A DNA stretch of 64,000 bases from Actinomycetota bacterium (GTDB lineage: Bacteria > Actinomycetota > Acidimicrobiia > Acidimicrobiales > AC-14): positions 41,110 through 105,109 of the forward strand of contig JAXDOC010000014.1 in assembly GCA_034669165.1 (NCBI GenBank), read 5' to 3'. Of the stretch, positions 30,681 through 63,477 are shown in pieces. The notes under the pieces are model-generated. The model was not told where the DNA came from. It worked only from the letters and a program-made list of their open reading frames with translations, and did not search any database. How positions within the stretch are numbered: the first letter of the stretch is position 1; the number at the start of each line of letters is the position of its first letter. Position numbers and translations under genes: made by a program.

Positions 30681-30688
30681 CGGCTGCC

Positions 30689-32098: not shown

Positions 32099-32117
32099 GA
32101 GGTGGGAAAATAGGAGG

Positions 32118-46713: not shown

Positions 46714-47070
46714 ATGAGCACGCCGCATGGCGACTTCCCTCGAGTGATGAAGGCGCTGGCGAACGCGCCCATCGGGACGCTCCGGGAGCTCCTCTTCAGG
46801 ATCTGCGTTATGGCCCTGGTATGCACCGTTTGGCTTGCGCGCACCTGGGCTGGAGCCATTTTCGGAACGCTGATCTTCGTGATGGCGCTGGTGGGGGGCC
46901 GCGCCGCACAACTACGAGCGGAGCAAGACGGCCGTGTTGAGCAGGAGCGGCTGCAGCAGGAAAAGTTCCGGTCCAAGGTCCACGGATGGGCCGCGGGGAC
47001 CCGCATCATGTTCTTCTTGTTCGTCCTCGGATTCCTGGCGTGGATGGTGTTCGACCTCTTCGCGGCGTGA
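46714..47070 (+). CDS. Small membrane protein (element right arm)
   Basis: 118 aa with three hydrophobic helices, in a less GC-rich region. Confidence 0.5.
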   Translation: MSTPHGDFPRVMKALANAPIGTLRELLFRICVMALVCTVWLARTWAGAIFGTLIFVMALVGGRAAQLRAEQDGRVEQERLQQEKFRSKVHGWAAGTRIMFFLFVLGFLAWMVFDLFAA

Positions 47071-47080
47071 TCATGGGACC

Positions 47081-47129
47081 GGGCTCTCTGACACACCTGT
47101 CCCTGGTGACACACGACTGTGCGGATAAC
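47081..47129. repeat. Right terminal inverted repeat of the element
   Basis: The reverse complement is GTTATCCGCACAGTCGTGTGTCACCAGGGACAGGTGTGTCAGAGAGCCC. It matches the left-end blocks TCCGCACAG and TGTGTC(T)CAGAG. Confidence 0.55.
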
Positions 47130-48050
47130 GACGGCCAGCGCATCATCGCCGTCGTGGAGGACGGCCACGTCGTCCTCGTCAACCGGCGGGGCCTGGAGGC
47201 CACCGCCACCTTCCCCGAGCTGGAAGGCATGGCCGGCGCCCTCGCCCCCCACGCGGTCGTCCTCGACGGGGAGGTGGTGGCGTTCAACGAGAAGGGCCAG
47301 ACCAGCTTCCAGCGCCTGCAGCGGCGGATGCACGTCGTCCAGCCGACGTCCCGGCTCCTGGCCGACACGCCCGTGTCCTTCGTCGCCTTCGACGTCCTCT
47401 GGCTCGACGGCGAGCTCCTCGTCGACCTCCCCCAATCCGAGCGCCGCCGGATCCTCGACGGGCTCGGGCTGAAAGGCCGGGCCTGGCAGACGGCGCCCGT
47501 CCTCGACGCCACGCCGGCCGAGCTGGTCGACGCGTGCCGCGAGGCGGGCCTGGAGGGGTTCATGGCCAAGCGGGTCGACGCCCCCTACCTCCCCGGCCGG
47601 CGCTCCACCGCGTGGTCGAAGATCAAGTGCGGCCGGCGGCGGGAGTTCGTGGTCGGCGGGTGGTCGACCGGCACCGGTTCGAGGGAGTCGAGCATCGGGT
47701 CGCTCGCCCTCGGCGCCTTCGACGTGACCCCCGACGAGGCCGAGGTCGCCGGCCGCCAGCAGCGGCTTTTCTACGTCGGTCAGGCCGGGTCCGGGCTCAA
47801 CGAGGACATGATCCGCCAGCTCACCCGCCTCTTCGCCCAGATCGAGGAGCCGCTCAGCCCGTTCGTCAACCCGCCCCGGGCCAAGCTCCACTGGGTTCGC
47901 CCGCTGCTCGTGGTCGAGGTCGCCTACACCGAGGTCACCGAGGCGGGCACCCTCCGCCAGCCGTCGATCAAGGGCCTGCGCACCGACGTCATCGCCACCG
48001 ACGTGACCTGGGACGACGAGTTGGCCGAGGCCTTCGCCGGGCGCACCTAG
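47130..48050 (+). pseudogene. 3' portion (from DGQR of the KxDG motif to the stop) of the disrupted chromosomal ATP-dependent DNA ligase
   Basis: It reads DGQRIIAVVEDGHVVLVNRRG... to the stop. It is collinear and gap-free with residues after KLDG of the element ligase. It has no N-terminal LLPMLA...FEPK segment of its own. Confidence 0.85.
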
Positions 48051-48129
48051 GCCGAAAAGGCGTTTCCCGGTGGGCTTCCGGGGAAGGAAAGCACTCAGAG
48101 CAAGGCGGGGATCACGAAGGGAGAAGGGT

Positions 48130-48360
48130 TTGTCGAATGGCGCCCATGAACTGAGCCTGGAAGACCTCGAAGCGGAGGAAGCCACCGCGCTCCCCGAGCG
48201 GGAGGCCATGTCGAAGGTCCACCTCGGCGCGGGGTTGGGCATCGACAACTTCGCCATGCCGATCAACGAGGCCACGGCCATGAACATCAACTCGACGGAC
48301 GCCGTCGCCATCGCCGACGCCGACCAGATCGTCATCATCACCCAAGCCGACGTGGACTAG
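48130..48360 (+). CDS. Small acidic peptide, paralog 1 (leader-like N-terminus plus Ala/Asp/Asn/Ile-rich C-terminus)
   Basis: A TTG start at 48130 is preceded by GAAGGGAGAAGGG. The sequence is LSNGAHELSLEDLEAEEATALPEREAMS-KVHLGAGLGIDNFAMPINEATAMNINSTDAVAIADADQIVIITQADVD. Confidence 0.6.
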   Translation: MSNGAHELSLEDLEAEEATALPEREAMSKVHLGAGLGIDNFAMPINEATAMNINSTDAVAIADADQIVIITQADVD

Positions 48361-48372
48361 GAGGACGAACCC

Positions 48373-48693
48373 ATGAGCCAGACCCAGAAGCCCGAGATGT
48401 CCCTCGAGGAGATGGACGAGGAGTCCGCCGCCGCTCTCCCCGACCGGGAGGCGATGTCGCTGCTCGACCTTGCCCTCAACCTCGACCTGGCCCTCGACCT
48501 GGCCGCACCGGTCGACGCGGCGGTCGCCGCCAACGCCAACGTGGCCGCCCCGATCGACGCGGCCGTGGCCGCCAACATCGCCTCCGTCGGGTCGGAGGCC
48601 ACCGCCGTCGCCGACCAGGACTCCGTGATCATCCAGGAGCTCGACGGCACGGCCATCGCCAACGCCACCCAGGGCGCCACCATCGAGCAGTAG
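48373..48693 (+). CDS. Small acidic repeat peptide, paralog 2
   Basis: AGGAGG lies upstream. The sequence is MSQTQKPEMSLEEMDEESAAALPDREAMS-LLDLALNLDLALDLAAPVDAAVAANANVAAPIDAAVAANIASVGSEATAVADQDSVIIQELDGTAIANATQGATIEQ. Confidence 0.7.
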   Translation: MSQTQKPEMSLEEMDEESAAALPDREAMSLLDLALNLDLALDLAAPVDAAVAANANVAAPIDAAVAANIASVGSEATAVADQDSVIIQELDGTAIANATQGATIEQ

Positions 48694-48725
48694 CTCGCCC
48701 GACCACTTTTTGGAGGAGAACCCCG

Positions 48726-49106
48726 ATGAATGAAGCAACTGGTCTTACCGACGCCGAGCTCGAGTCCCAGGACGTCACCGCCGTTCCCGACCGGGAGGCG
48801 ATGTCGGTGCTGGACGCCCTCGACCCGGCGGCACTGCTGGGGACGTCGCTGCTCAACGTCGACGTCGACCTCAACCTCGACGCCGACGTGGCTGCGCCCA
48901 TCGACGCCGCCATCGCCGCCAACGCCAACGTGGCCGCACCGATCGACGCCGCCGTGAGCGCCAACGTCCTGTCCGTCGACTCCGACGCGGCCGCCCTGGC
49001 CGACCAGGACTCGCTCATCGCCCAAGACCTCGACGGCACCGCCATCGCCACCGCCATCCAGGACGCCGGCATCGACCAGGGCGGCGCCAGCGCCGCCGCC
49101 GGCTGA
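48726..49106 (+). CDS. Small acidic repeat peptide, paralog 3
   Basis: GGAGGAG lies upstream. The sequence is MNEATGLTDAELESQDVTAVPDREAMS-VLDALDPAALLGTSLLNVDVDLNLDADVAAPIDAAIAANANVAAPIDAAVSANVLSVDSDAAALADQDSLIAQDLDGTAIATAIQDAGIDQGGASAAAG. Confidence 0.7.
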   Translation: MNEATGLTDAELESQDVTAVPDREAMSVLDALDPAALLGTSLLNVDVDLNLDADVAAPIDAAIAANANVAAPIDAAVSANVLSVDSDAAALADQDSLIAQDLDGTAIATAIQDAGIDQGGASAAAG

Positions 49107-49147: not shown

Positions 49148-50896
49148 ATGACGCAGCAGATGGACGAGACGGTCCGCATCGCCCGGGCACCCGGGAGGCA
49201 CGGCGACCGGAAGCCGGCCCGTGAACGGCCCCCCCGTCGTGGAGACGGTCGCGAGACCGATGCCAGCGTTCCCCAGCTGGCCAGCGGGGTCGAGCTCATC
49301 GGCGAGTACGAGGCATCGGGCTACAAGGAAGCCCCCTGCCTCGTGCGCCGGGCCGACGGCCAGACGATCCAGCTGACCCCCCTGCTCTACGCGACCCTCG
49401 AGCAGATCGACGGCCAGCGCGACGTGTCCCAGATCTCCACCGCCCTGGGCGAGCGCCTGGACCGGCCGGTGAGCGCCGACAACGTGCGCTACCTGGTGCA
49501 CGAGAAGCTGCGCCCGGCGGGCGTGGTCAAGGACCGCGACGGGCGCGACCCCGAGGTGCAGAAGGCCAATCCCCTGCTCGCCCTCCGCCTGCGCCTCCAG
49601 ATCACCGGCGAGCAGGCGACGAACCGCCTCACCGCGCCCTTCGCCATCCTGTTCCGGCCGTGGGTGGTCGTGCCGGTGGTGGCCGGATTCGTGGCGGTGG
49701 TGGCGTGGGTGATCGGTTCTCGGGGCGTGGGGGCCGGCGCCCGCCAGCTCCTCTACTCGCCGGGCCTGATGCTGCTCACGTTCGCCCTCACGATCCTTTC
49801 CGCCTCGTTCCACGAGTTCGGCCACGCCGCCGCCTGCCGCTACTCGGGCGGACGACCGGGGGCGATGGGCTGCGGCCTCTACCTGGTGTGGCCCGCCTTC
49901 TACACCGACGTCACCGACGCCTACCGCCTCGACCGCCGGGGCCGCCTGCGCACCGACCTGGGCGGCCTCTACTTCAACGCCATCTTCGCCCTCGCCACCT
50001 TCGGCGTGTGGGCCCTCACCGGCGTCGAGGCCCTCCTGCTGCTCATCCCATTGCAGGTGCTGCAGATGGTGCACCAGCTGCTGCCGTTCATCCGCATGGA
50101 CGGCTACCACATCCTCTCCGACCTGGTCGGGGTGCCCGACCTGTTCGCCCGCATCAAGCCCACGCTCCTCGGCTTCGTGCCCGGCCGCCGCCACCAGGAG
50201 AAGGCGGCGGTGCTGAAGCCCTGGGTGCGGGTGGTCGTCGCCCTGTGGGTGCTCACGGTCGTGCCCCTGCTGCTCTTCAGCCTGCTGACGGTCGTGATCT
50301 CGGCCCCCCGCATGGTCGCCACCGCGTGGGACTCGATCGGCCTCCAGTGGCGGGTCGTCCGCATCGCCTTCGACACCCACAAGTGGCTGACCGTGCTCGT
50401 CGGCGGGCTGGGCGTGATCGCCCTCGCCCTCCCCGTCCTCGGCTCGGGCTACGCGGTGGGCCGGTTCGGCCGCCGGGCCGGCTCGTGGGGATGGTCGCAG
50501 GCGGGGGAGATCCGTTTCGGCCGACCGATGATGGCGCTGCTGACGGTGGGTCTGGCCGGCGCGCTGGCGTTCACCTGGTGGCCCAACGGCGAATATCGCC
50601 CGATCCAGCCCGGCGAACGGGGCACCGTCACCGACGCCGTCGCCGCCGTGTCCGACGTGGGCACGGGTCGGCCCGGCCTCACCCCGGAGACGGAGGCCGA
50701 ACTCGACGGTGCCCCCAGTCAGGCGTGGAACCTGAGCCAGGGCCCGACCGAGGAGGCGCCCCCGCCGGAGGAGGTCGTCGACGACCCGCTGACGCCCGCC
50801 GGCGACCAGTCCCCGACCCCCACCACCACCATCGCCGGCTCCGGCGACGACGAGCCGTCCTCCAACTCTGTCCCGCCGACCACCACGGCCGGCTAA
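49148..50896 (+). CDS. M50/site-2-protease-family membrane metalloprotease with an N-terminal PqqD/RRE-like domain and a Pro/Thr-rich tail
   Basis: HEFGH and the second S2P motif LLPFIRMDGYHILSD lie in TM helices. The N-terminal soluble segment is QLTPLLYATLEQIDGQRDVSQISTALGERLDRPVSADNVRYLVHEKLRPAGVV. Confidence 0.8.
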   Translation: MTQQMDETVRIARAPGRHGDRKPARERPPRRGDGRETDASVPQLASGVELIGEYEASGYKEAPCLVRRADGQTIQLTPLLYATLEQIDGQRDVSQISTALGERLDRPVSADNVRYLVHEKLRPAGVVKDRDGRDPEVQKANPLLALRLRLQITGEQATNRLTAPFAILFRPWVVVPVVAGFVAVVAWVIGSRGVGAGARQLLYSPGLMLLTFALTILSASFHEFGHAAACRYSGGRPGAMGCGLYLVWPAFYTDVTDAYRLDRRGRLRTDLGGLYFNAIFALATFGVWALTGVEALLLLIPLQVLQMVHQLLPFIRMDGYHILSDLVGVPDLFARIKPTLLGFVPGRRHQEKAAVLKPWVRVVVALWVLTVVPLLLFSLLTVVISAPRMVATAWDSIGLQWRVVRIAFDTHKWLTVLVGGLGVIALALPVLGSGYAVGRFGRRAGSWGWSQAGEIRFGRPMMALLTVGLAGALAFTWWPNGEYRPIQPGERGTVTDAVAAVSDVGTGRPGLTPETEAELDGAPSQAWNLSQGPTEEAPPPEEVVDDPLTPAGDQSPTPTTTIAGSGDDEPSSNSVPPTTTAG

Positions 50897-51508: not shown

Positions 51509-52084
51509 CTAGGACGCGCCCACCGGCTCGATGCCGAGGTCGCGGTAGGTCAGCAGGGCGCGGAACGGCACCCCGAGCTCGGCGAAGATGGCGGCGGTGG
51601 CCGGTCCCCGGTCGACCATCGCCGTCACCCCCACCACCTCGGCCCCGGTTTCCCGGACGGCGTGGTAGGCGTCGAGCACCGACCCGCCCCGGGTGACCAC
51701 GTCGTCGACCACGAGCACCCGCACGCCCGGGCCCAACGTGGCCCCCTCGACCCGGCGCTTGGTCCCCCGCTCCTTGGCCGCCTTGCGCACCACGAACCAG
51801 GCCCGGTCGGCGACCATGGCCACCGCGTGGGAGAAGTGGTCGGCGCCGAGGGTGAGCCCACCCACGGCGTCGAAGTACCACCCCTCCTCGGCCGCCATCT
51901 GGACCAGTGCCTCACCGGCCAGGCGCAGGTCGGCCCCGCGGGCGAAGGCGCGCTTGTTGTCGATGAAGTCCCGGCTCCAGTCGCCCGAGGCCAGCTGCAC
52001 CGGCTCGTCGAGCTGGAGGTGCCCCTTGGCCAGGATGATCTCGACGAGGGCCTGTCGGACCTCGGCGAGGGGGCGGGGCGGCAT
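51509..52084 (-). CDS. pyrE: Orotate phosphoribosyltransferase
   Basis: 191 aa. The PRPP-binding motif VLVVDDVVTRGGS and the overall PyrE-like layout are present. Confidence 0.8.
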   Translation of the reverse strand: MPPRPLAEVRQALVEIILAKGHLQLDEPVQLASGDWSRDFIDNKRAFARGADLRLAGEALVQMAAEEGWYFDAVGGLTLGADHFSHAVAMVADRAWFVVRKAAKERGTKRRVEGATLGPGVRVLVVDDVVTRGGSVLDAYHAVRETGAEVVGVTAMVDRGPATAAIFAELGVPFRALLTYRDLGIEPVGAS

Positions 52085-52182
52085 CTCCGCCGAATACTAC
52101 GATCCGACTCGAGGACCCGCCGGGCGAAAGGGGGTGCGGCACGAGCGAGCAGCCCGGTCCGGCGGCGGACGGACCCCAACGT

Positions 52183-55100
52183 GTGCGCATCCCCGCCGTC
52201 GTCGGCCAGCGGGCCGCCGGCCTGGTGGGCCGGGTGTGGGCCCTGCGGCAGGTGGCGGAGTGGCTCGACGCCGGCGCGGAGCGGCTGTTCCTGCTCACCG
52301 GCGAGCCGGGGGCGGGCAAGTCGGTGCTGGCCGCCTGGCTGGCGGGGGCGGGTCCGGCGCCCGCCGAGCCTGACGCGGCCGCCGCCCTCGAGCGGGTGCG
52401 GGCGTCCTGGTCGGCCGGCTGCTTCTGCATGACCCGGGGCCAGGACGGGGCCGACATCACCCCCGCCTGGTTCGTCACCAGCCTGGTCAAGCAGCTCTCC
52501 GCCCGTCACCCGGCCTTCGCCGACGCCTTCCTGCGGGTCAACGCCCCCGAGCTCATCCACCAGGAGGTCGGGGCCAACCAGGGCACCGTCGTCGGCCACA
52601 TCGGCGACCTCGACGTGAAGCTCCCCGACGCCGGCGACCGCTACGCCCAGGGCGTGGTCGAGCCGCTGCGGGCCATGGCCGAGGCCCATCCCGACCAGAC
52701 CTTCGCCATCCTGGTCGACGGCGTCGACGAGGCGTTCGTGGGCCCCGAGCCCACGGTGTTGTCGCTCCTGGCCCGGTCGGGGAGCCTGCCCGCCAACGTC
52801 CGCTTCTTCGTCACCAGCCGCTACGAGCGCAGCCTGGTGACCCAGCTGCAGGACGGGTTCGGGGGCGACGTCCGCCACCTCGACCTGTCCTCCGGCGACG
52901 GGGCCGCCCGCAACGAGGAGGACGTCCGCCTGTTCGTCCGGGCCCGGCTGGCGACGGTCGACCCGGCCGCGTCCGACGCCGTGGTCGAGCAGCTGGCCCA
53001 GCAGGCGGCGGGCAACTTCCTCTTCATCGACTTCCTCCTCGACGAGCTGGCCAAGGGCACCCGCACGCTCACAGACACCGCCGAGCTGCCCACCGGCCTG
53101 TTCGACCTCTACCGCCAGTACCTGCAGCGCATCGTCCCCGGGTTCGCAGAGCGGGAGCGGGGACCGGAGTGGGGCGACCACTACCAGCCGCTCCTGGGCA
53201 GCATCAGCGTGGCCCTGCCCGCCGCCCCCGCCGACCACCTCCTGCGCTGGCTGGAATGGGACGACGACGACCTCAGCCGCTTCCTCCAGACGGTCGAGCA
53301 GGTCACCGAGTGGGAGCCGGCCGCCGACGCAGCCGTGGGGGAGGGCGGCGCGGGTGGCGCCGGCGGATGGCGCCTCTACCACCGCTCCCTGGCCGACTTC
53401 CTGGGCACCCGCTACCTCGACGACCGGGGCTCCGACAACCGCTTCTACGTGGCCCCGCCCAAGCAGCACGACCGCATCGTCCGCCACTACCAGAAGGCCC
53501 GGGCCGACCTGTGGGGCGGCGACTGGGCCAACTGCGACGACGGTTACTGCCTGCGCAACCTCGTCCGCCACCTGGCGGCCAGCCTGCCCGCCCTGGAGAA
53601 GCCGGCCGACAAGGCCGCCCGCACCGGCGAGCTGTTCGACGTGGTCCTCGACCCCGGTTTCCGCGCCCGCCAGCGGGAGGTCCCGGGGGGGCCGGCGGCG
53701 ATGTACGACGACGTCCGCACCGCCATCGAGCTGGGCCTCGCCGCCCCAACGGCGGGAGGCGACGACCGGCTGGTTGGGCTGGTCGAGACCATGGCGGTGG
53801 CGCCCGAGGTCGAGCTGCGGGGCCTGGCCGCGGAGGCGCTGGTGCGGCTGGCGGCGCGGGACGCGGCCGACGGAACCCGCCGGGCCCTCGACACCATGGT
53901 CGAGCTGCTGGCCACCGACTCGGCCGACGCCTGGAACGTGGTCCTCAAGACCGCCGCCTCCCTGCCCGGGCCCGGCGGCCTCGACGTCTTCCGCCGGGCC
54001 GCGGCCGACGAGCGAGAGGCCCTGCGCCAGGCGGCCGGCCTGTACGCCTACCTCCAGTGGCGGCCCGACGACCCCAACTGCCTGCCCGTCCGGCTCTACG
54101 CCGACCTGGTGCCGACGGTGACCATCACCGGGCAGATCCTCCACCAGAAGGATCGCCTGGTGCTCGACTTCCTCGCCGGCCTGTCGATCATGGTCTACGT
54201 CAACCACCCCGACCGGCCCGAGGTCGTCGACCAGACCGCCACCCTCTTCTACGAGCTGCTCAAGAACCGGCTCAAGCTCCACCTGCTCAACCTGAAGGCG
54301 TTCGTCAAGATCGCCACCCCGGTGGTGGCCCAGGTGTACTCCAAGCGCCTGCTCGACGCGGCCCTGTTCAGCGGGTTCCAGGACGCGGGCGAGTTCTTCG
54401 CCGCCGACCGGAAGGCCATCGAGCGGGTGGTCCCCCTCGTCGACCCGGCCACCGACATCCTCTCCCGGGGCGACGACCTGGCCGCCCTCCTCCAGTCGCC
54501 CCTCGCCCTGTCGCGGATGGTGGGCTCGATGGTGCTGGCCATCCACGCCTTCCACGACCCGGCCGGCACCGATCCGTTCGTCCGGGACCTGTTCGGGCGC
54601 CTCGACGACACCGGCCGGCGGTGGACGCTGTGGGCCTACGCGGTGCTGATCGAGAAGGCGCCCCCGGCGTGGACGCCGCTGCTGGAGGACCTCACCCGCC
54701 AGTTCGTGGCGGAGAACCGGGCCGCCTTCCTGTCCGCCGACGGCGGCACCCGGGTGCCGTTCGACATCGACCTGCTCCCCCTGGGCCTGGCCTACGGCAA
54801 GCAGGGCGGCCCCCTGACCTACTTCGAGACGCTCCTGGCCGGCGCCGACGCCACCATGCTCCCCCGCGTGATCCGGGGCCTGGCCGCGGTCGGGTTTTAC
54901 CAGCCCCAGGCGGTGCTGCAGACCCTGCGCACGTCGGTGCCGAACCTGCTCGATCCGGCCCTGGAGGACAGCTTGGCCACCACCCTGGCCACCATCCGGG
55001 TGCTCCACGCCGACACCGTCGACCTGTTCCTGCGTGACGTCGGCGCTCCCGACCGGCTCCGGCAGCTGGTGGCGGAGCGGGGCGACATCGAGCTGGTCCG

Positions 55101-55305
55101 CCGCTACATCGTGTGGATGGGCTTCTACAACAACGGGGTCCACCAGGCCCTTTTCCACCCCAAGATGCGGGTCGGCCTGCTGGCGGTGATCCTCGATGCC
55201 CTGGCCACGGCCAAGAACGACAAGGCCTTCGTCCGCCAGATCACGCCCGGGCCCATGAACCTGGCCCGGGAGGCCGACTACCACCTGGAGCGGTGGACCG
55301 AGTGA
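52183..55305 (+). CDS. NACHT-type STAND NTPase with a long C-terminal helical-repeat (sensor-like) region
   Basis: 1040 aa, GTG start. Walker A LTGEPGAGKSVL, Walker B FAILVDGVDE (the NACHT-typical DGxDE) and FFVTSRYE (the NACHT TSR motif) are present. About 700 aa of alpha-helical repeat-like sequence follow. Confidence 0.85.
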   Translation: MRIPAVVGQRAAGLVGRVWALRQVAEWLDAGAERLFLLTGEPGAGKSVLAAWLAGAGPAPAEPDAAAALERVRASWSAGCFCMTRGQDGADITPAWFVTSLVKQLSARHPAFADAFLRVNAPELIHQEVGANQGTVVGHIGDLDVKLPDAGDRYAQGVVEPLRAMAEAHPDQTFAILVDGVDEAFVGPEPTVLSLLARSGSLPANVRFFVTSRYERSLVTQLQDGFGGDVRHLDLSSGDGAARNEEDVRLFVRARLATVDPAASDAVVEQLAQQAAGNFLFIDFLLDELAKGTRTLTDTAELPTGLFDLYRQYLQRIVPGFAERERGPEWGDHYQPLLGSISVALPAAPADHLLRWLEWDDDDLSRFLQTVEQVTEWEPAADAAVGEGGAGGAGGWRLYHRSLADFLGTRYLDDRGSDNRFYVAPPKQHDRIVRHYQKARADLWGGDWANCDDGYCLRNLVRHLAASLPALEKPADKAARTGELFDVVLDPGFRARQREVPGGPAAMYDDVRTAIELGLAAPTAGGDDRLVGLVETMAVAPEVELRGLAAEALVRLAARDAADGTRRALDTMVELLATDSADAWNVVLKTAASLPGPGGLDVFRRAAADEREALRQAAGLYAYLQWRPDDPNCLPVRLYADLVPTVTITGQILHQKDRLVLDFLAGLSIMVYVNHPDRPEVVDQTATLFYELLKNRLKLHLLNLKAFVKIATPVVAQVYSKRLLDAALFSGFQDAGEFFAADRKAIERVVPLVDPATDILSRGDDLAALLQSPLALSRMVGSMVLAIHAFHDPAGTDPFVRDLFGRLDDTGRRWTLWAYAVLIEKAPPAWTPLLEDLTRQFVAENRAAFLSADGGTRVPFDIDLLPLGLAYGKQGGPLTYFETLLAGADATMLPRVIRGLAAVGFYQPQAVLQTLRTSVPNLLDPALEDSLATTLATIRVLHADTVDLFLRDVGAPDRLRQLVAERGDIELVRRYIVWMGFYNNGVHQALFHPKMRVGLLAVILDALATAKNDKAFVRQITPGPMNLAREADYHLERWTE

Positions 55306-56342
55306 CGACGTGGGCGCCGGTGGTCCGTCGTCACCGGCGGTTGCAGGCGGTGGGCCTGTTCGTCCGCCTGTCGGCGCTGGGGACCACGCTGGCGGTGGTC
55401 TTGCTGGGGGCGGCGTCGGTGTCGCCCGCCCTGCCGTGGGCGACGGCCGCCGTCCTCGTGATCGTGGCCGTCGGGTTCCACGTCTACTTCTTCGTGTCGA
55501 ACGACGTGATCGACCTTCCAGTGGACCGCCTCGAGCCCCGACGGGCGGTGAGCCCGCTGGTCCGGGGGACGATCAGCCGCGGCGCGGCGCTGGCCATCGC
55601 CCTGGGCGCGGTGCCGGTGACGCTGGCCGTGGCCGGCGCCGGGCCGGGAGGGGCGAGAGCGTGGTGGGCGCTGATCGTGTGCTTCGCCCTGATGACCGTC
55701 TACAACCTGCTCAACAAGCGGACGTCGGTGCCGTGGCTGCTCGACCTGGTCCAAGGCGTGGGGTGGGCCGCGTTCTTCCTCTACGGCGCCGCCACCCGCG
55801 GTTCGTGGACGCCACTCACCTGGTGGTCGGCCGCCTTCTGGGTCGGGTTCATGGTGCTGGCCAACGGCGTCCACGGAGCGCTGCGGGACGTGGCCAACGA
55901 CGCCCGCTGCGGTGCCCGCACCACCGCCATCGCCATGGGCGCGAGGGCCGACGCCGACGGGCGGGTTGTTCTCCCCCGCGGTGTGGTCGCCTACGCCTGG
56001 GCGCTGCACGTCGGGCTGGTGGCCATCGTCCTCGGGGCGTGGGCGTTCGGCGACCTCGGGTACGGCGCCGTGGCGCGGGGCGGGACGCTCGTCGCCGTCC
56101 TCGGGCTGGGGGCGACCGGGGCGTGGGCCCTGTCGGCCGCCGCGATCAGTGACGGCGACCCGGAGCCGCTGCGCCTGGCCGGCACCCTGCACCTCCTCCT
56201 GCTGATGGCGATGCCGGTGGTCCTGCTGCTCCCGTGGTTGGCGACCGGGTTCCGGCTGGTGGTCGTGGTCGGCTTCCTCGCCCCGTTGGCCGCCCTCGGC
56301 TGGCTGCCCGACACGGTCAGGTGGGTGCGCCGGTGCCGCTGA
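55302..56342 (+). CDS. UbiA-family prenyltransferase (integral membrane)
   Basis: 346 aa. The GTG at 55302 overlaps the NACHT stop (GTGA). Asp-rich motifs NDVIDLPVDR and RDVANDARCGARTTAI are present. About 8-9 TM helices. Confidence 0.8.
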   Translation: MTTWAPVVRRHRRLQAVGLFVRLSALGTTLAVVLLGAASVSPALPWATAAVLVIVAVGFHVYFFVSNDVIDLPVDRLEPRRAVSPLVRGTISRGAALAIALGAVPVTLAVAGAGPGGARAWWALIVCFALMTVYNLLNKRTSVPWLLDLVQGVGWAAFFLYGAATRGSWTPLTWWSAAFWVGFMVLANGVHGALRDVANDARCGARTTAIAMGARADADGRVVLPRGVVAYAWALHVGLVAIVLGAWAFGDLGYGAVARGGTLVAVLGLGATGAWALSAAAISDGDPEPLRLAGTLHLLLLMAMPVVLLLPWLATGFRLVVVVGFLAPLAALGWLPDTVRWVRRCR

Positions 56343-57757
56343 CCCGCTTCCGCGACCTCGTCCTCCTCGCCGACCAGGTGAAGGTGCGCGACGGGCGGCT
56401 GGCGTCGTTCGTGGTGCGCGTGTTCGAGTCGCCCGCCGGCGAGGGCGAGCAGGCGGAGCGGGTGAAAGTGCCGAGTGACCTGGACGTTCGCGTCGGTTGG
56501 CTCGACCGGCGCCAGATCGACGCCGACCTGGGGGCCCAGATCGAGCTCGGTACGATCCTCGGTCTCCTCCTCCTTCCGCCCTACGCCCGGGGGCTCTTCC
56601 AGGCCAGCCTGGCTGTGCCGGCGAACGACGAGGGGCTCCGGGTCCGGCTGCGGCTCGACCCCGCCCTGGCCGATGTCCCGTGGGAGCTGGCCTGGGTGGC
56701 CCGTCACCAAGGGGAGCCGACGGCGGCCGGGTTCCTCGCCCTCGACCCCCGGATCTCGATCGTCCGCCACGAAGCGGTGGCCACGCCGGTCCCCTCCGTC
56801 TCGGCCGAAGTCGCTGGGCGGCGGGTCGTCGTGGCGTTGGCCAGTCCCGACGGCTACCCGCCGTTGCCGTCACTGGCCGCCGAGCGGGAGGCGCTGTCCG
56901 AGGCCCTCGACGGCGTGGCCGGGGTGACGGCCACGTTCGTCGACGACGCCACCCCGGCGTCCGTCCTCGACGCCCTGTCCGCCGGCGCCGACATCTTCCA
57001 CTTCTCCGGTCACGGCACGGCCGACGGGGGCGTCGTGCTGGCCGGCGCCGACGGCACCGCGCAGGTGGTGCCGGCCGACCGCCTGGCCGAGATGGTCCAG
57101 GCCAAGGGCGTGCGCCTGGCCGTGCTCGGCGCCTGCGACACCGGCCGCCGGGACGACCACAACGTGTGGGGGGGCGTGGCCGCGGCCCTCGTGGAGCGGG
57201 GCGTGCCCGCGGTGGTGGCCATGCAGTTCACCATTGGCGACCGGAAGGCGGCCGCCTTCGCCAGCGCCCTCTACCGGGCTCTGGTGGCGGGCCTCACCGT
57301 CGACGAGGCCGTCGCCCTCGGCCGCACCGCCATCCGCACCGTCTCCACCGATGCCCAGGCTGACGTCCGCGACTGGGCCGTCCCCGTCCTCTACCTGCGG
57401 GATCACGGCGGGCGGGTGTTCGAGCCGGTGTCGTCGGCCGCCGCCCGGGCCGAGGCCGAGGCCGGGTCCGCCCACCTCTACCAGCAGCGGGTGGGGACGG
57501 TCTCCGCCGGCGGCCTGGTGCTCGGCGCGCTCCTGGGAGCCGGGTCCACCGAGAGGGTGGAGATCGACCAGGACGCGGAGCGGGTCGACGGACGGTTGAT
57601 CGGCGTCGTCGGCCCCGGCGAGGGCAGCGTCCACGTCGACCAGGACGTCGAGGTGGTCGGCGAGGGGGGACTCGTCCTCGGCGGGGCCACCTCCCCCGAG
57701 GACGCGGCCCGAGCCATGGAGCTGCTCCGGGGCGTCCCGCCAAAGGACGACGGTTGA
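56333..57757 (+). CDS. CHAT-domain (caspase-like) protease
   Basis: 474 aa. The GTG at 56333 overlaps the UbiA gene by 10 nt. ...LADVPWELAW..., the catalytic His (IFHFSGHG) and Cys (LAVLGACDTG), and AVVAMQFTI are present. Confidence 0.85.
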   Translation: MPLTRFRDLVLLADQVKVRDGRLASFVVRVFESPAGEGEQAERVKVPSDLDVRVGWLDRRQIDADLGAQIELGTILGLLLLPPYARGLFQASLAVPANDEGLRVRLRLDPALADVPWELAWVARHQGEPTAAGFLALDPRISIVRHEAVATPVPSVSAEVAGRRVVVALASPDGYPPLPSLAAEREALSEALDGVAGVTATFVDDATPASVLDALSAGADIFHFSGHGTADGGVVLAGADGTAQVVPADRLAEMVQAKGVRLAVLGACDTGRRDDHNVWGGVAAALVERGVPAVVAMQFTIGDRKAAAFASALYRALVAGLTVDEAVALGRTAIRTVSTDAQADVRDWAVPVLYLRDHGGRVFEPVSSAAARAEAEAGSAHLYQQRVGTVSAGGLVLGALLGAGSTERVEIDQDAERVDGRLIGVVGPGEGSVHVDQDVEVVGEGGLVLGGATSPEDAARAMELLRGVPPKDDG

Positions 57758-57785: not shown

Positions 57786-58583
57786 GTGGCTCGATCGATG
57801 TGGTCCGGGGCCATCAGCTTCGGGCTGGTGAACGTGCCGGTGAAGCTCTACAGCGCGGTGTCGCCCAAGGACGTCCGCTTCCACCAGATCGACGCCAAGA
57901 GCAAGTCGCGGGTGAAGCAGAAGCGGGTCTCGGCCGCCACCGGCGAGGAGGTCCCCTACGAGGACATCGTCAAGGGCTACGAGCTGGGCCCCGACACCTA
58001 CGTGATGATCTCCCCCGAGGAGCTCAACGCCCTCGACCCCAAGGCCACCCGGTCGATCGACATCGAGGACTTCGTCGACCTCGACCAGATCGACCCCATC
58101 TACTACGACCACCCGTACTACCTGGCGCCCGACAAGGGCGGGGCCAAGGCCTACGTCCTGCTGCGGCGGGCGATGCAGGAGACGAACAAGGTGGGAATCG
58201 CCCGGGTCGTGCTGCGGACCAAGCAGTACCTGGCCGCCATCCGGCCCCTGGGGCGGGCCCTGGTGCTGGAGACGATGCTCTACCCCGACGAGGTCAACCC
58301 CCTCGACGACCTCGAGGTCCCCGGCGACGAGATCGAGGTCACCGAGCGGGAGGAGAAGATGGCCCGCCAGCTCATCGACTCGCTCACCACCGACTTCGAC
58401 CCCGACAAGTACAAGGACGACTACCGCGAGCGGGTCCTCCAGCTCATCGAGCAGAAGGCCGCCGGCCAGGAGATCGTGGTCGAGGAGGCCGCCGACGACG
58501 CCCCCAAGGTCGTCGACCTCATGGCCGCCCTGGAAGCCAGCCTGGCCGCGGTCAAGAAGGGCAAGCCCGCCGACAAGAAGTAG
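57786..58583 (+). CDS. ku: Ku protein (NHEJ DNA end-binding)
   Basis: AGGAGG lies upstream of the GTG. MARSMWSGAISFGLVNVPVKLYSAV...YYLAPDKGGAKAYVLL and a Lys-rich C-terminus are present. Confidence 0.9.
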   Translation: MARSMWSGAISFGLVNVPVKLYSAVSPKDVRFHQIDAKSKSRVKQKRVSAATGEEVPYEDIVKGYELGPDTYVMISPEELNALDPKATRSIDIEDFVDLDQIDPIYYDHPYYLAPDKGGAKAYVLLRRAMQETNKVGIARVVLRTKQYLAAIRPLGRALVLETMLYPDEVNPLDDLEVPGDEIEVTEREEKMARQLIDSLTTDFDPDKYKDDYRERVLQLIEQKAAGQEIVVEEAADDAPKVVDLMAALEASLAAVKKGKPADKK

Positions 58584-59562: not shown

Positions 59563-60401
59563 AAGAGACCGCGCATCAGCAGACCCCACGCCACGAGACC
59601 GAAGTGGCGATCGAGCCGGCTCATCACCCGCGCCTCCCCTTGGAGGTCTCCGTCGCTGCGCCGGATGACGAGTCGCTCCGCGCTCTCCCACGCCTCGTCC
59701 CGGGCCTTCTCCACGACGAAGTTGTTGACGAAGTCGAGAGCCCGGGCCACGAAGCCCTCGTCGATCTGGTCGACCAAGCCATCGGTGAACTCGTCCCGCA
59801 GGACCTTGTACTTCATGGCAAAGATGGTGTTGATCCCGTCGTAGTCGAGGCGCTGCTCCCCATGACCGAGAGGCGCTTCGATCACCTCGCACGTCGTCAC
59901 GAGGGCCGCCGCCAGGTCGTAATTGATGTGGGCGTTCACGCCTGCGACGGCGAACTGGATGGGTGCGACTTTCCGGTCTCCCCGTCGCTCGAGCAGCGCT
60001 TTCCACACTCGTGGCACCTCGCCCTCACGCGTCCCCCAGGCTCGGAGGGCGTCGAAGTACCGGTTGGCGAAGGCGACATCGAGCCGGTCGAGAAAGTCGA
60101 AATCGGCGAACCGGCCCGTCCGCAACCAGTCGGCGACCTCGCAGGTGATGACGGTGTAGAGCTTGTTGAACTCGGCCAACCCGTCGTGCTGGGGCGCGGC
60201 GGCATTGATGGCTCGCATGCGATCGATGGCCTCGGCCACGGTCGTGACCGGCTCCCTGATGATCTCCTCGTCTGTCGAGATCCGATCGTCGAAGTCCGGG
60301 TCGATCATGTCCGGTGGTCCGGACCCCTCATCGAAAGCGACGGAGAAACCGGTCACGTCGTCGGGGGGAATCGGGACTCCATCATCCGCCGTAGTTGTCA
60401 T
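59559..60401 (-). CDS. Hypothetical protein (DUF5995-like)
   Basis: 280 aa from the internal ATG at 60401. Composition is coding-like (AVAGVNAHINYDLAAAL...). The family name is from memory only. Confidence 0.55.
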   Translation of the reverse strand: MTTTADDGVPIPPDDVTGFSVAFDEGSGPPDMIDPDFDDRISTDEEIIREPVTTVAEAIDRMRAINAAAPQHDGLAEFNKLYTVITCEVADWLRTGRFADFDFLDRLDVAFANRYFDALRAWGTREGEVPRVWKALLERRGDRKVAPIQFAVAGVNAHINYDLAAALVTTCEVIEAPLGHGEQRLDYDGINTIFAMKYKVLRDEFTDGLVDQIDEGFVARALDFVNNFVVEKARDEAWESAERLVIRRSDGDLQGEARVMSRLDRHFGLVAWGLLMRGLF

Positions 60402-60462
60402 GGCGGCGGACGCTAGCAACGGGCCTCGGCGGGTGCCAGCGATTCCAAGCAATACTGGCGGC

Positions 60463-63400
60463 GTGCCTGGCCGAGCTCTCAGCGCACCGTTTCTCGGGCG
60501 GACGAAGGAATTGGAACAGCTCTCGGCAGCACTTGGCCGGGCCGCGGCCGGTGAGCCCAACGCGGTCATCGTCGGGGGCGATGCAGGGGTGGGCAAGAGC
60601 CGGTTGGTGGGCGAGTTCTGTCGCCAGGCGACCACATCGGGGGCGTGGGTCCTCGTCGGGAGCTGCATCGAGGCCACCGACGACGGGGTGCCCTACAGCC
60701 CCATCGCCGAGGCCCTGCGCCACCTGATGCGGGCCACGTCGGCGCCGGAGCGGGACGACGTGCTCGGGCCCGGCGCCCAGGAGATCGCCCGCCTCGTCCC
60801 CGAGCTCCGCCGCACCCTCGAGCCGGAGCCCGACCACGGCCCGGCCGGCCCCGCCTTCCGCTCCCGGCTGTTCGAGACGGTGCGCGACATCCTCGGCCGC
60901 CTCGGCCAGCGGGCGCCGGTGCTGCTGGTGGTGGAGGACGCCCATTGGGCCGACAGCTCCACCCGCGACCTGCTCACGTTCCTCCTCGTCAACCTCCTGC
61001 GGGAGCCGGTGCTGGTCGTGGTCACCTATCGCAGCGACGAGCTGCCCCGCCGTCATCCGCTGCGGCGCTACCTGGCCGAGCTCTACCGCCGGGGCCGGGT
61101 CGACCGCTTCGAGCTCGCACCCTTCGACCGCGACGAGCTGGTGGCCCAGCTCACTGGCATCCGCGGCCAGCCGCCCGCGCCCGACCTGGTCGACGCCATC
61201 TGGCGGCGGTCCGAAGGCAACCCGTTCCACGCCGAGGAGCTGCTCGCCACCGCCGACGAGGACGAGGACGCGCTGCCCCTCACGCTCCACGACATGCTCA
61301 CCGCCCGCCTGGGCGTGGTCTCGCCCGCGTCGCAGCGGGTACTGCGGGCGGCGTCGGTCGGCGGCGGCGAGGTCGCCCACTGGATATTGGGGGCGGCCAC
61401 CGGCATCGACGACGACCAGCTCGACGACGCCCTGCGGGAGGCGATCGACCACCAGCTGCTCGTCTTCGACCCCGACCGCCGCACCTATCGCTTCCGGCAC
61501 GCCCTCCAGCGGGAGGTGGCCTACGGAGAGCTGCTGTTCGAGGAGCGGACCCGTCTCCACAGCCGCTACGCGGAGGCGCTCAGCCTCCACCCCGAGCTCG
61601 CCGGCACCGTCAGCGAGCGGGTGGCGGAGGTGGCCTACCACTGGTACGCCGCCCAGCGGGCCGACCGGGCCGTGCCCGCCCTGGTCGAGGCGGCGGCGGT
61701 GGCCGAGGGCCTCCACGGCTTCGCCGAGGCCCAGCGTCACTACGAGCGGGCCCTGCAACTCTGGAGCAGGGCCAACGACCCCGAGCGCCTCGTCGGCTGC
61801 AACCGGCCGACGCTACGGGCCCGGGCCGCGGAAGCCGCTCACCTGGCGGGTGACCACGACCAGGCGCGGGTCCTCGTGGGCAAGGCCCTCACCGGGGTCG
61901 ACCCGTCGGCCGACCCGGTCGGGGCCGGCCTGCTCCACGAATCGCTCGGTCGCTACCTGTGGGCCGCGGGCGAGACCGAGGCCGCCCTGGTCGCCTACGA
62001 GGAGGCGGTGGCCCTGGTCGGGGCGGGGGCGGGGCAGGTGGCGGAACGGGCCCGGGTGGTGGCGTCGGTGGCCCAGGCCCTCATGCTCGCCGGCCGCTAC
62101 CGCGAGTCCCGGCGCCAGGCGGAGGAGGCGGTCGAGCTGGCCCGCAGCCTCGACTCCCGACCCTACGAGGGCCAGGCCCGGGCCACCCTCGGCGCCGTCC
62201 TCGTCCTGCTCGGGGAGGACGAAAGCGGGATCGCCCACCTCCGGGAGGCCATCCGTATCCTCGACGGTAACGGCCGCCCCGACGATGTCGGCCGGGCCTA
62301 CCTGAGCCTCTCCGAACTGCTGTCGGGCCCGCTCAACAGGGTCGACGAGGCCGTGGCCACCGCCATGGAGGGCTTGCAACGGGTGCGGGAGCTGGGCATC
62401 GACCGCGTCCACGGCGTGTCCCTGCTGGCGGCGGCTTCCAACGGGCTGTTCCGCCTCGGCCGGTGGGACGAGGCCGATGCCATGCTCGACGAGGCCATGG
62501 CCCTGCGCCCGAGTGGCACCGCCGCCATCGACCTGTACCTGGCCCGGGGCCGGATGTCGGTGGGGCGGGGGCGGTTCGTCGACGCCGCGACCGACCTCGA
62601 CACCGCCCGGGCGCTGTCGGCCCGGGCCCTCGCCCCCCAGTACCGCGCCCCCCTGAGCACCCTCACGGCAGGGCTGGCCCTGTGGGAGGGCGAGCTGGAC
62701 AAGGCGTGCGACGCGGTGGAAGAGGGGCTGAAGGCGATCAGCGGCACCGACGACCCCTGGTTCGGCGCCCCGTTGATCTGGCACGGGCTGCGGGCCCAGG
62801 CCGACCGGGCCGAGCGGGCGCGGGCCCGCCAGTCGGAGGCGGAGCTGGCGTCGGCCCGTTCGACGGCTGCTGACCTGGTGGCCGACATGGACCGGCTGGT
62901 GGCGGCGTCCCAGAGCCTGCCCTTCGCCTACGCCGGCATCATCGACGCCTACCAGCGCCTGGCCCGGGCCGAGCAGGCGCGGGTCGACGGCTTCCCGTCG
63001 CCGCCGCTCTGGGAGGAAGCGGCCGCGGCCTGGGACGCAGTGGGCCAGCCCTATCCGGCGGCCTACGCCCGCTACCGGGGCGGCGAGGCCACCCTCTACC
63101 TGCGGGAGGGCGGGGGGGCGGCCGCCGCCGCCCGCCTGCTCCGGGAGGCGCACGCCACCGCGGTGGCGTTGGGCGCGGCGCCGTTCCAGGCCGAGATCGA
63201 GCGGCTGGCGACCCGGGCCCGGGTCACCCTGACGTCGCCCGACGAGCCGGCGCCGCCCGCCGAGCCCGAGCCGGCCCCGTTCGGCCTGACGTCCCGGGAG
63301 CGGGAGGTGCTGGGCCTCATCGCCGGGGGGGCGTCGAACCGCACGATCGCCACCGCCCTGTTCATCAGCGAGAAGACGGCCAGCGTCCATGTGTCCCACA

Positions 63401-63477
63401 TCCTGGCCAAGCTCGGGGTCACGAGCCGGGTCGAGGCCGCGTCCGTCGCCCACCGCATGGAGTCCGCCCAGAAGTAA
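60463..63477 (+). CDS. Large ATP-binding LuxR-family transcriptional regulator (LAL/MalT-like)
   Basis: GTG at 60463. An N-terminal P-loop (VGGDAGVGKSRL), a long TPR-like middle region and a C-terminal LuxR HTH (LTSREREVLGLIAGGASNRTIATALFISEKTASVHVSHILAKLGV) are present. Confidence 0.85.
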   Translation: MPGRALSAPFLGRTKELEQLSAALGRAAAGEPNAVIVGGDAGVGKSRLVGEFCRQATTSGAWVLVGSCIEATDDGVPYSPIAEALRHLMRATSAPERDDVLGPGAQEIARLVPELRRTLEPEPDHGPAGPAFRSRLFETVRDILGRLGQRAPVLLVVEDAHWADSSTRDLLTFLLVNLLREPVLVVVTYRSDELPRRHPLRRYLAELYRRGRVDRFELAPFDRDELVAQLTGIRGQPPAPDLVDAIWRRSEGNPFHAEELLATADEDEDALPLTLHDMLTARLGVVSPASQRVLRAASVGGGEVAHWILGAATGIDDDQLDDALREAIDHQLLVFDPDRRTYRFRHALQREVAYGELLFEERTRLHSRYAEALSLHPELAGTVSERVAEVAYHWYAAQRADRAVPALVEAAAVAEGLHGFAEAQRHYERALQLWSRANDPERLVGCNRPTLRARAAEAAHLAGDHDQARVLVGKALTGVDPSADPVGAGLLHESLGRYLWAAGETEAALVAYEEAVALVGAGAGQVAERARVVASVAQALMLAGRYRESRRQAEEAVELARSLDSRPYEGQARATLGAVLVLLGEDESGIAHLREAIRILDGNGRPDDVGRAYLSLSELLSGPLNRVDEAVATAMEGLQRVRELGIDRVHGVSLLAAASNGLFRLGRWDEADAMLDEAMALRPSGTAAIDLYLARGRMSVGRGRFVDAATDLDTARALSARALAPQYRAPLSTLTAGLALWEGELDKACDAVEEGLKAISGTDDPWFGAPLIWHGLRAQADRAERARARQSEAELASARSTAADLVADMDRLVAASQSLPFAYAGIIDAYQRLARAEQARVDGFPSPPLWEEAAAAWDAVGQPYPAAYARYRGGEATLYLREGGGAAAAARLLREAHATAVALGAAPFQAEIERLATRARVTLTSPDEPAPPAEPEPAPFGLTSREREVLGLIAGGASNRTIATALFISEKTASVHVSHILAKLGVTSRVEAASVAHRMESAQK

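Follow-up and report, generated by a model that had tools for sequence, protein, structure and literature searches.

A STAND NTPase and a UbiA-family prenyltransferase form the core of an apparently undescribed, NLR-like family of bacterial loci

Animals, plants, fungi and bacteria all use STAND and NLR proteins as a common switch in innate immunity and programmed cell death (PCD). In these systems the variable N-terminal part of the protein serves as the effector while the C-terminal repeats sense, and in every characterised case known to us the input read by the repeats is a protein, nucleic acid or soluble metabolite. What distinguishes the NACHT clade from other STAND clades is a D[GAS]hDE signature in Walker B; its bacterial members are in some cases tethered to the membrane via transmembrane (TM) segments, and a predicted metabolite-monitoring STAND system with GUN4 and tetrapyrroles has been noted by Kibby et al. 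(10.1101/2022.07.19.500537). The present analysis concerns an operon of three overlapping genes in a 64,000-nucleotide stretch of DNA (the window; positions 41,110 to 105,109 of contig JAXDOC010000014.1, assembly GCA_034669165.1) from an Actinomycetota bacterium. The operon encodes a NACHT-type STAND NTPase, a UbiA-family intramembrane prenyltransferase and a CHAT protease. Comparison with related loci indicates that the invariant core is the STAND NTPase with its C-terminal sensor plus UbiA, not the trio, and that the sensor end is paired with an intramembrane prenyltransferase, catalytically intact by motif, across at least seven phyla and five outputs. The locus is read here, tentatively, as an NLR-like conflict or PCD-type system in which the sensor arm would be coupled to a dedicated membrane prenyltransferase, with CHAT as the output.

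The genes and their junctions are as follows.

52183-55305, plus strand: gene 1, NACHT-type STAND NTPase of 1040 amino acids without a fused effector (third-position GC, GC3, 0.97; exact NCBI match MEA2900966.1)
55302-56342, plus strand: gene 2, UbiA-family intramembrane prenyltransferase of 346 amino acids (GC3 0.95; PF01040; MEA2900967.1)
56333-57757, plus strand: gene 3, CHAT (clan CD, caspase-like) protease of 474 amino acids (GC3 0.94; PF12770; MEA2900968.1)
55302-55305, plus strand: GTGA stop/start overlap between the NTPase and UbiA genes, read in the sequence
56333-56342, plus strand: 10-nt overlap between the UbiA stop codon (TGA, 56340-56342) and the CHAT start codon (GTG at 56333, in frame with the CHAT open reading frame)

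The system is compact, with three genes in 5.6 kb. The GC content of the window is about 72%, which makes long spurious open reading frames (ORFs) abundant, and the three consecutive genes are recognised as real by their GC3. The coding frame changes exactly at both junctions, so that the trio occupies three different frames. A sequence-only reading of this DNA had proposed three mutually overlapping genes with these same two overlaps, and the ORFs, GC3 and frame switches bear this out. A 1219-residue antisense ORF (51625-55284, minus strand) that covers nearly the whole NTPase gene has no coding-type GC3 in its own frame and was rejected as a high-GC artefact, as were the other ORFs overlapping the trio. 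The UbiA GTG is preceded, 11 nt upstream, by a Shine-Dalgarno-like GGAG. For CHAT, a second possible start is the GTG at 56321, which would lengthen the overlap to 22 nt; this is the start called in the orthologous locus L001. A scan for sigma-70 promoters and intrinsic terminators found none, which is uninformative in DNA of 72% GC. In the NCBI record, a metagenome-assembled genome (MAG) labelled 'Actinomycetota bacterium', the three proteins are annotated as hypothetical, UbiA family and hypothetical, respectively; the nearest relatives of the locus are Acidimicrobiia MAGs.

Recurrence of the pair and exchange of effector heads

The association of the NTPase with UbiA was followed from both partners. 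The UbiA-anchored set came from a scan, by motif, of a single genome for each of 185,579 species. Its loci were evaluated with locally built seed hidden Markov models, and those with at least 3.5 kb upstream of UbiA (57 of 69) were taken as evaluable. A second set, anchored on the C-terminal domain of the NTPase (the C-module, described below), was drawn from a different collection, metagenome contigs, and comprises 57 loci, 50 of which have room downstream. The UbiA clade is rare, with 69 species-level loci among the species representatives, and its hosts are Acidimicrobiia, many filamentous Chloroflexota, Myxococcota, Cyanobacteria, Acidobacteriota, Gemmatimonadota, Gammaproteobacteria and Bacteroidota. 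A STAND NTPase lies directly upstream of UbiA on the same strand in 42 of the 57 evaluable loci (74%), from at least seven phyla. Thirty of these 42 NTPases carry the C-module, and the remainder have TPR-type sensors (TIR-NB-ARC-TPR, cyclase-AAA_16-TPR). Conversely, UbiA adjoins the C-module gene in 41 of 50 loci and lies about 1 kb away in one more. The spacing between C-module and UbiA is at most 30 nt in 57 of 72 loci and the same 4-nt overlap occurs in 17 of 72, with the start codon taken nearest to the stop. UbiA homologues with 70, 50, 41, 40 and 35% identity follow a protein of 1000-1370 residues that ends at or overlaps the UbiA start in otherwise unrelated surroundings (L001-L008). 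One relative belongs to a named isolate, Oscillochloris trichoides DG6 (L058), which has a pair of protein kinase-NACHT-C-module protein and UbiA.

These results also answer the question, raised by the sequence-only reading, of whether the trio is conserved elsewhere: the NTPase-UbiA pair is, while CHAT occurs as a separate neighbour or fused to the NTPase. The picture of UbiA wedged between sensor and protease holds for the Acidimicrobiia-type loci and for L007, and fails as a general rule.

The part of the system that varies is the N-terminal effector head. Representative proteins carry Pkinase, Trypsin_2, TIR_2, CHAT or Guanylate_cyc domains (Pfam) in architectures such as Pkinase-NACHT-C-module (Chloroflexales), Trypsin_2-NB-ARC-C-module (a cyanobacterium), TIR_2-NACHT-C-module and CHAT-NACHT-C-module, and, with a TPR sensor, TIR_2-NB-ARC-TPR and Guanylate_cyc-AAA_16-TPR. 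Among the 42 NTPases of the genome set, the head is a kinase in 14, a TIR domain in nine, a cyclase in five, CHAT in two and trypsin in one, and 11 have none. In a rough neighbour-joining tree, heads are exchanged between sister UbiA lineages (CHAT in L004 against TIR in L119; trypsin in L026 amid CHAT forms), and the UbiA subclades track the sensor type, C-module or TPR. UbiA stays constant, and the effector heads, of which there are at least five kinds including CHAT, are interchangeable.

One relative, L043, connects the family to described conflict systems. Its NTPase-C-module protein (6850-9900) has an N-terminal EAD7 that matches a downstream EAD7-TIR-FGE-sulfatase protein (11171-12496); EAD7 is detected by Pfam on the effector, which shares 44% identity over 62 amino acids with the NTPase N-terminus. 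This homotypic EAD7 pair would put the family among the EAD-type conflict systems that Kaur et al. described in 2020. FGE-sulfatase and C-type-lectin folds are described as targets of diversity-generating retroelements in STAND systems (10.1101/2023.09.22.558884).

Peptidase_C11 and patatin genes are present in several loci. In L018, three extra CHAT paralogues and a Peptidase_C11 gene (13192-18900, minus strand) are convergent to the STAND-UbiA operon, and in L003 extra CHATs, Peptidase_C11 and patatin (14585-19334, minus strand) have the same arrangement. These clusters suggest a local build-up of protease and phospholipase effectors.

The prenyltransferase, the C-module, the NTPase and the protease

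The UbiA protein of the window matches PF01040 (5e-18, 65.6 bits against a gathering threshold of 34.2) and carries three motifs that are invariant in its clade.

55500-55529, plus strand: Asp-rich motif 1, NDVIDLPVDR, UbiA residues 67-76 (clade-invariant NDxxDLxxDR)
55701-55724, plus strand: YNLLNKRT, the central Yx4K(R) motif of UbiA (clade-invariant)
55863-55901, plus strand: UbiA motif 2, NGVHGALRDVAND, containing RDVAND, residues 195-200 (clade-invariant RDxxND)

Only 46 relatives, with 98-30% identity and almost all metagenomic, came out of a word-indexed search of 5.8e9 proteins, and NDxxDLxxDR, Yx4K(R) and RDxxND are invariant over all 46. The AlphaFold2 (AF2) model (pLDDT 92, pTM 0.91) has the canonical polytopic, all-helical UbiA fold; its top Foldseek matches are ApUbiA (4od4; E 1e-6, TM-score 0.60/0.73), AfUbiA (4tq4), DGGGPS (6m31) and DPPR synthase (8j8j), and a profile search of the PDB also gave matches. 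An intact UbiA-family protein, with the sequences of motifs 1 and 2, had been pointed out from the sequence alone, and the Pfam match agrees. The same reading had held that membership of a housekeeping clade would make the adjacency fortuitous. No NCBIfam equivalog was reached, the top match being PRK12884.1 with 48.7 bits against a cutoff of 269; this covers the UbiA, MenA/MqnP, CyoE/CtaB, DPPR synthase, DGGGPS and ChlG subfamilies, and PADLOC has no model for the clade. The clade instead has extended motifs of its own (EPRRAxSPLVRG and NGVHGxLRDxxND) and a divergent C-terminal part of about 90 amino acids. Because no equivalog is reached, the motifs are invariant and the modelled fold is canonical, the window protein is predicted to be an active enzyme of an orphan, non-housekeeping clade.

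In many relatives, lipid enzymes lie beside or downstream of UbiA, namely a second UbiA (UbiA2), a CrtI/CrtO-family or HpnE-like flavin oxidase, a DesA-like desaturase and a PF04240 CruF-like membrane protein. UbiA2 is canonical and comes nearest to the archaeal DGGGPS model, scoring 125-157 bits where the cutoff is 296. Single-chain UbiA-UbiA2 fusions of 602-605 amino acids occur (P0029, at 3467-5275 of L007, and P0027), as does a 518-residue UbiA-NUDIX fusion (P0042). These fusions suggest that prenyl groups are transferred sequentially or by a heteromer, and that the substrate or product bears a diphosphate. No lipid-accessory gene was found in the window, which carries the minimal form of the system. 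A further family of about 250-307 amino acids without a Pfam match lies just downstream of UbiA or UbiA2 in TIR- and CHAT-headed loci (L004 12075-12833, L008 11014-11937, L020, L033, L068, L075, L114, L119 and L128) and not in the window; it may be another accessory component.

The C-module was delimited (residues ~576-1040) by BLAST and phmmer comparison of the proteins upstream of UbiA homologues.

53908-55302, plus strand: C-module, residues 576-1040, an all-helical ARM/HEAT-like solenoid and presumed sensor or adaptor (comparison and AF2 model)
54772-54801, plus strand: conserved C-module motif LLPLGLAYGK
55120-55146, plus strand: conserved C-module motif GFYNNGVHQ

A third conserved motif is the C-terminal RWT. 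The C-module occurs as a stand-alone ORF of 462-471 amino acids (L002, L007) and fused behind a CHAT-NTPase (L004, L008, L018 and L019, with Walker A near residue 445 in L004 and L008). Of 28 homologues, mostly stand-alone, none has a Pfam domain. Among 1.84e9 representative proteins the domain is found in 416 clusters (152 at E<=1e-30), nearly always at the extreme C-terminus of proteins of 950-1400 amino acids or stand-alone. Its AF2 model (pLDDT 91.7, pTM 0.91) is an all-helical solenoid; Foldseek returned generic ARM/HEAT solenoids only (TM-score 0.2-0.3) and no enzymatic or known ligand-binding fold, and a profile search of PDB sequences gave no matches. The C-module is therefore a discrete, separable and novel alpha-solenoid family that is pluggable onto different STAND proteins.

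The remainder of the NTPase consists of a NACHT-type NTPase domain followed by a helical/winged-helix region of about 270 amino acids.

52300-52323, plus strand: Walker A, GEPGAGKS, residues 40-47 (satisfies GxxxxGK[ST])
52708-52731, plus strand: Walker B, ILVDGVDE, residues 176-183 (DGVDE, the NACHT-clade D[GAS]hDE signature)
52804-52827, plus strand: sensor-1-like FFVTSRYE, residues 208-215, following Walker B

The NTPase matches NPHP3_N (PF24883) above gathering (4e-12, 46.9 bits against 24.8), together with AAA_16 and AAA_lid_TANC1; NACHT itself (PF05729) stays below gathering on the window protein (16.5 bits against 26.7) and is passed by the relatives L027 and P0087. The L001 orthologue shares 75% identity. 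The strict D[GAS]hDE motif is present in nine of 37 UbiA-linked NTPases; the Chloroflexi forms have DALNE, and L026 is of NB-ARC type. Since Walker A lies at residue 40, there is no N-terminal effector on the window protein, which is a NACHT-type P-loop switch without a fused effector. The NACHT hallmarks and the lack of an N-terminal effector had both been recognised in the sequence-only reading, and they stand. Its stretch of about 700 residues of helical repeats is indeed helical; it divides, however, into the helical/winged-helix region and the separate 465-residue alpha-solenoid.

The third protein matches CHAT (PF12770) with 1e-34 and 120.6 bits against a gathering threshold of 24 (Peptidase_C25, 2e-7), and both halves of the proposed His/Cys dyad are in place.

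56999-57016, plus strand: catalytic His in HFSGHG, residues 223-228
57128-57145, plus strand: catalytic Cys in GACDTG, residues 266-271
57401-57754, plus strand: Gly/Val-rich repeat tail of about 115 amino acids (residues ~357-474), no Pfam match

The window CHAT shares 36-40% identity (E 1e-42 to 1e-62) with the CHAT heads of CHAT-NTPase-C-module fusions. Because it belongs to the same subfamily as these fused heads, it is functionally tied to the NTPase, and CHAT is predicted to be the output in the lineage of the window. The score against the HetF model NF045509 is below cutoff (40.8 bits against 1200), and a weak PADLOC match to SAVED_CHAT (3e-6) is confined to the CHAT domain (residues 174-366). 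The repeat tail (…VSAGGLVLGA…VGEGGLVLGG…) is common to the free-standing CHATs (the window, L002, L003 and L007) and absent from the NTPase-fused heads, and may serve as a beta-solenoid-like element for docking or polymerisation.

A possible mechanism and its alternatives

In the mechanism proposed here, UbiA would reside in the cytoplasmic membrane with its active site toward the cytoplasm, as in solved UbiA structures, and, alone or with the optional tailoring enzymes, would make or turn over a specialised prenyl-lipid. The C-module would dock on UbiA or bind its lipid product, bringing the NTPase to the membrane, and the on/off state of the NTPase would be set by that lipid or enzyme. This input would shift on a perturbation, for instance infection, damage to the envelope or a collapsed prenyl-diphosphate pool. 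The NTPase would then swap its nucleotide and oligomerise, and the oligomer would recruit and activate CHAT, possibly via the C-terminal repeat tail of the protease. Finally, CHAT would cut cellular targets, leading to growth arrest or death. Recruitment in trans has a precedent within the family in the homotypic EAD7 pair of L043. UbiA is assigned to the input side because the constant partner tracks the C-terminal domain, which is the sensing end in NLR/STAND proteins. By analogy, the domain repertoire (TIR, CHAT, trypsin, patatin, C11 and EAD7) points to a conflict or antiphage role.

It is possible, if doubtful, that the family forms a new bacterial NLR class whose ligand, activating or repressing, is a prenyl-lipid of the cell itself, made on site by UbiA and in some loci tailored by a second prenyltransferase, a desaturase or an oxidase. 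The C-module would then be a solenoid that reads the lipid or the enzyme and is combined with NACHT or NB-ARC switches bearing a CHAT, TIR, kinase, trypsin or cyclase output. If so, this class would be an immune sensor of a lipid second messenger or of 'guarded lipid-carrier metabolism'. More generally, if the coupling is functional, membrane isoprenoid chemistry would be the input (or the constant output) of an NLR-type switch, or bacteria would have a new way to monitor lipid-carrier or isoprenoid metabolism; a role would also be gained for a new domain family of about 465 amino acids (416 clusters, no Pfam model) and for an orphan UbiA clade.

Several observations weigh against the sensor-arm reading. 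The putative contact of the C-module with UbiA or its product is a prediction from the architecture, and conserved catalysis together with accessory lipid enzymes fits an effector role for UbiA equally well. About 16% of the C-module loci have no UbiA, and 15 of the 57 UbiA loci have no adjacent STAND gene. A mirror-tree comparison of UbiA and C-module (r=0.55, Mantel p=0.001) performs no better than UbiA against the NTPase (0.54) and vanishes among distant pairs; it was discarded as support for the pairing, being significant yet uninformative. The sole apparent NACHT-C-module-UbiA fusion (P0078, NJM07624.1) was rejected as a read-through artefact of genetic code 25, in that two in-frame TGA codons (L024, 2900 and 2912) part the genes under code 11. 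In the window NTPase and CHAT, Pfam detected no EAD. The flanks show no defence-island embedding (136 ORFs of 21 diverse loci, mostly metabolic, counted with no background rate), and a set of 2.9 M viral contigs contains no copy of the system. Given the lack of both island embedding and viral-contig copies, nothing ties the system to phage. Accordingly, of the earlier proposal of a novel NLR-type conflict system, the NLR-type switch and the conflict-domain repertoire find support and the expected defence-island signal does not.

The public entry NJM07624.1 is labelled as a 1366-residue 'UbiA family prenyltransferase' (L024, 2900-2914); its contig has 63% GC and is binned as Candidatus Gracilibacteria, probably wrongly.

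An unlikely alternative is that UbiA is the constant, membrane-directed effector, switched on by the STAND oligomer via the C-module. Together with UbiA2, oxidase or desaturase where these occur, it would drain an essential prenyl-(di)phosphate pool, such as the C50/C55 carrier, or build a membrane-disrupting lipid, and CHAT, TIR or kinase would be a second or amplifying output. The strictly conserved catalytic motifs agree with this, the varied lipid-tailoring sets and UbiA-UbiA2 fusions suggest that the product matters, and patatin phospholipases, which are likewise membrane-directed effectors, are found in some loci. Metabolite-depletion effectors are also an established theme in bacterial immunity. 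However, canonical N-terminal effectors are already present and are swapped while UbiA remains constant, and known conflict systems diversify their effectors. UbiA is moreover coupled to the C-terminal domain, the sensor end of NLR-type architectures, and the clade also occurs without a STAND gene, beside lipid enzymes only (L034, L044, L055 and L050), which would be odd for a dedicated toxin.

It is improbable that the loci are no conflict system at all and constitute, in filamentous or multicellular bacteria, a STAND-regulated pathway of membrane-lipid homeostasis or stress (for light, oxidative or envelope stress, or for development). The NTPase would then sense a physiological cue, the kinase, cyclase or protease head would signal, and the UbiA cassette would remodel isoprenoid lipids or pigments. 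Kinase and cyclase heads together are indeed the most frequent (19 of 42), the accessory genes resemble carotenoid and isoprenoid tailoring genes (CrtO/CrtI family, PF04240 CruF-like, DesA-like), and the hosts are largely pigmented, phototrophic or filamentous. The ordinary metabolic flanks, the vertical inheritance at a fixed chromosomal position in Acidimicrobiia and the lack of phage copies point the same way. Such a pathway is difficult to reconcile with TIR, CHAT, trypsin, EAD7-TIR-FGE, Peptidase_C11 and patatin, the signature repertoire of conflict and PCD systems (PMC7159879). Shuffling of heads between sister lineages is typical of arms-race systems and less so of housekeeping regulation, and the family has a sparse and uneven distribution, with 69 of 185,579 species representatives.

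That UbiA is a mere membrane anchor or scaffold for the STAND protein, its chemistry being irrelevant, is very improbable. Tight translational coupling and constant adjacency would be expected of an anchor, and NACHT proteins tethered by TM segments exist in bacteria (10.1101/2022.07.19.500537). Invariance of every catalytic residue of both Asp-rich motifs and of the central Y/K motif down to 30% identity would not be expected of a pure anchor, and lipid-tailoring genes co-occur. Chance adjacency of a housekeeping UbiA (quinone, haem O or decaprenyl-phosphate) between unrelated genes is effectively refuted: the whole block, including Ku and ligases, is syntenic in close Acidimicrobiia, where conservation alone proves nothing, but searches from both anchors find the pair in unrelated surroundings in at least seven phyla, UbiA matches no housekeeping equivalog and the genes overlap stop to start.

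Genomic surroundings and relation to known systems

The trio sits in a stretch of about 9.7 kb bracketed by genes of non-homologous end joining (NHEJ). Two tandem paralogues of a LigC-like ATP-dependent DNA ligase lie upstream (45621-46643 and 46986-48050), and Ku (57786-58583) begins 29 nt downstream of CHAT; these genes are kept in close Acidimicrobiia MAGs and absent from distant loci, and the NHEJ set of L001 additionally has a LigD Prim-Pol. Also in the window are two or three small paralogous ORFs (48007-49103), where a family of about 106 amino acids matches ORFs 48007-48357 and 48150-49103, and a protein of 582 amino acids (49148-50896) without a Pfam or PADLOC match; this block is kept in Acidimicrobiia relatives. 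Ku, the two ligases, a divergent PRTase-like gene, the 582-residue protein and YkuD were considered as parts of the system and rejected, as they occur only in the syntenic block of close Acidimicrobiia and are absent from all distant loci. A second STAND-like ATPase, a LAL-type AAA_16-TPR-LuxR regulator of 1104 amino acids (60163-63477), lies 2.4 kb downstream, and a homologue occupies the same position in L001. The window also contains a haem cluster (28733-32100) with hemE (URO-D, 28733-29755), hemH (ferrochelatase, 29748-30680) and an amine oxidase consistent with hemY (~30.7-32.1 kb). The CrtI-like match at about 30.7 kb, considered as a source of carotenoid substrate, is this hemY beside hemE and hemH and is irrelevant.

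Defence-type matches among the 136 flanking ORFs are sporadic (RT/DRT, Cas1, a ThsB-like TIR, patatin and extra CHATs), and PADLOC found no defence genes among the neighbours in the window. The defence-island enrichment asked about in the sequence-only reading is therefore without signal in the flanks of the 21 loci and in the window neighbours, and PADLOC recognised no known or candidate system in the three proteins or their neighbours. A megablast of the 5.6-kb locus against plasmids gave no match.

The locus shares with the bNACHT systems of Kibby et al. (10.1101/2022.07.19.500537) a NACHT-type NTPase, the D[GAS]hDE motif and a presumed C-terminal repeat sensor, as well as conflict-type N-terminal effectors (TIR, peptidases, kinases) in relatives and an enrichment in multicellular or filamentous hosts. 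In contrast to bNACHT, the window NTPase has no fused effector, its C-terminus is a new alpha-solenoid and it has a near-constant UbiA operon partner; that source makes no mention of UbiA or of a prenyl or lipid partner. Similarly, the NTP-dependent conflict systems described by Kaur, Aravind and colleagues (PMC7159879, PMC8195603) have a STAND core with CHAT, TIR and trypsin effectors fused or in trans, a phyletic bias to actinobacteria, Chloroflexi, cyanobacteria and myxobacteria, and homotypic EAD pairs, of which L043 shows one (EAD7). The present family differs from them by the addition of the C-module and UbiA pair and of a lipid-tailoring cassette, and the window proteins have no detected EAD. 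Neither PMC7159879 nor PMC8195603 mentions UbiA, prenyl or isoprenoid components.

The bacterial gasdermin, Craspase and SAVED-CHAT systems likewise use a clan-CD protease as the output of a sensor, and, by analogy with gasdermin, a membrane-acting operon partner. Unlike in the gasdermin systems, the membrane partner here is an enzyme with intact catalytic motifs and no pore-former; no gasdermin was matched by Pfam or PADLOC among the locus genes or neighbours, and no SAVED/CARF, cas or CBASS genes were found near the locus. Avs systems also consist of an effector, a STAND NTPase and a C-terminal helical-repeat sensor, with modular exchange of effectors. The sensors of Avs (Gao et al. 2022) reportedly recognise the terminase or portal of phages by direct binding, with no membrane enzyme required, whereas UbiA is coupled to the sensor end of the NTPase here. 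PADLOC Avs models gave no significant match to the NTPase; only mad8 (0.012) and PDC-M16A (0.025) appeared, as insignificant matches to the P-loop only.

As a prenyltransferase, the UbiA protein resembles ApUbiA (4OD4/5), AfUbiA (4TQ3-6), DGGGPS (6M31) and DPPR synthase (8J8J) in its PF01040 domain, its two Asp-rich Mg2+/diphosphate motifs and its all-helical fold. It differs from the characterised UbiA subfamilies in that no subfamily model is reached, and in its clade-specific motifs and divergent C-terminal ~90 amino acids. The CrtI-like and CruF-like neighbours in some loci recall the LyeJ-CruF-CrtD trio of bacterioruberin, LyeJ being a lycopene elongase (LyeJ/CrtEb). To our knowledge, no other UbiA subfamily is coupled in operons to STAND NTPases. 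A link between UbiA and STAND was not found in the literature covered, from which most papers in subscription journals are missing, so that this absence is no proof; UbiA is mentioned once in related literature, where the Lipocone preprint deals with another operon, that of YfiM-1. The loci form a rare, multi-phylum and apparently undescribed family of putative immunity or cell-death-type systems. The family is of the NLR-like kind, and what is new in it is the pairing with UbiA, the C-module and the lipid cassette.

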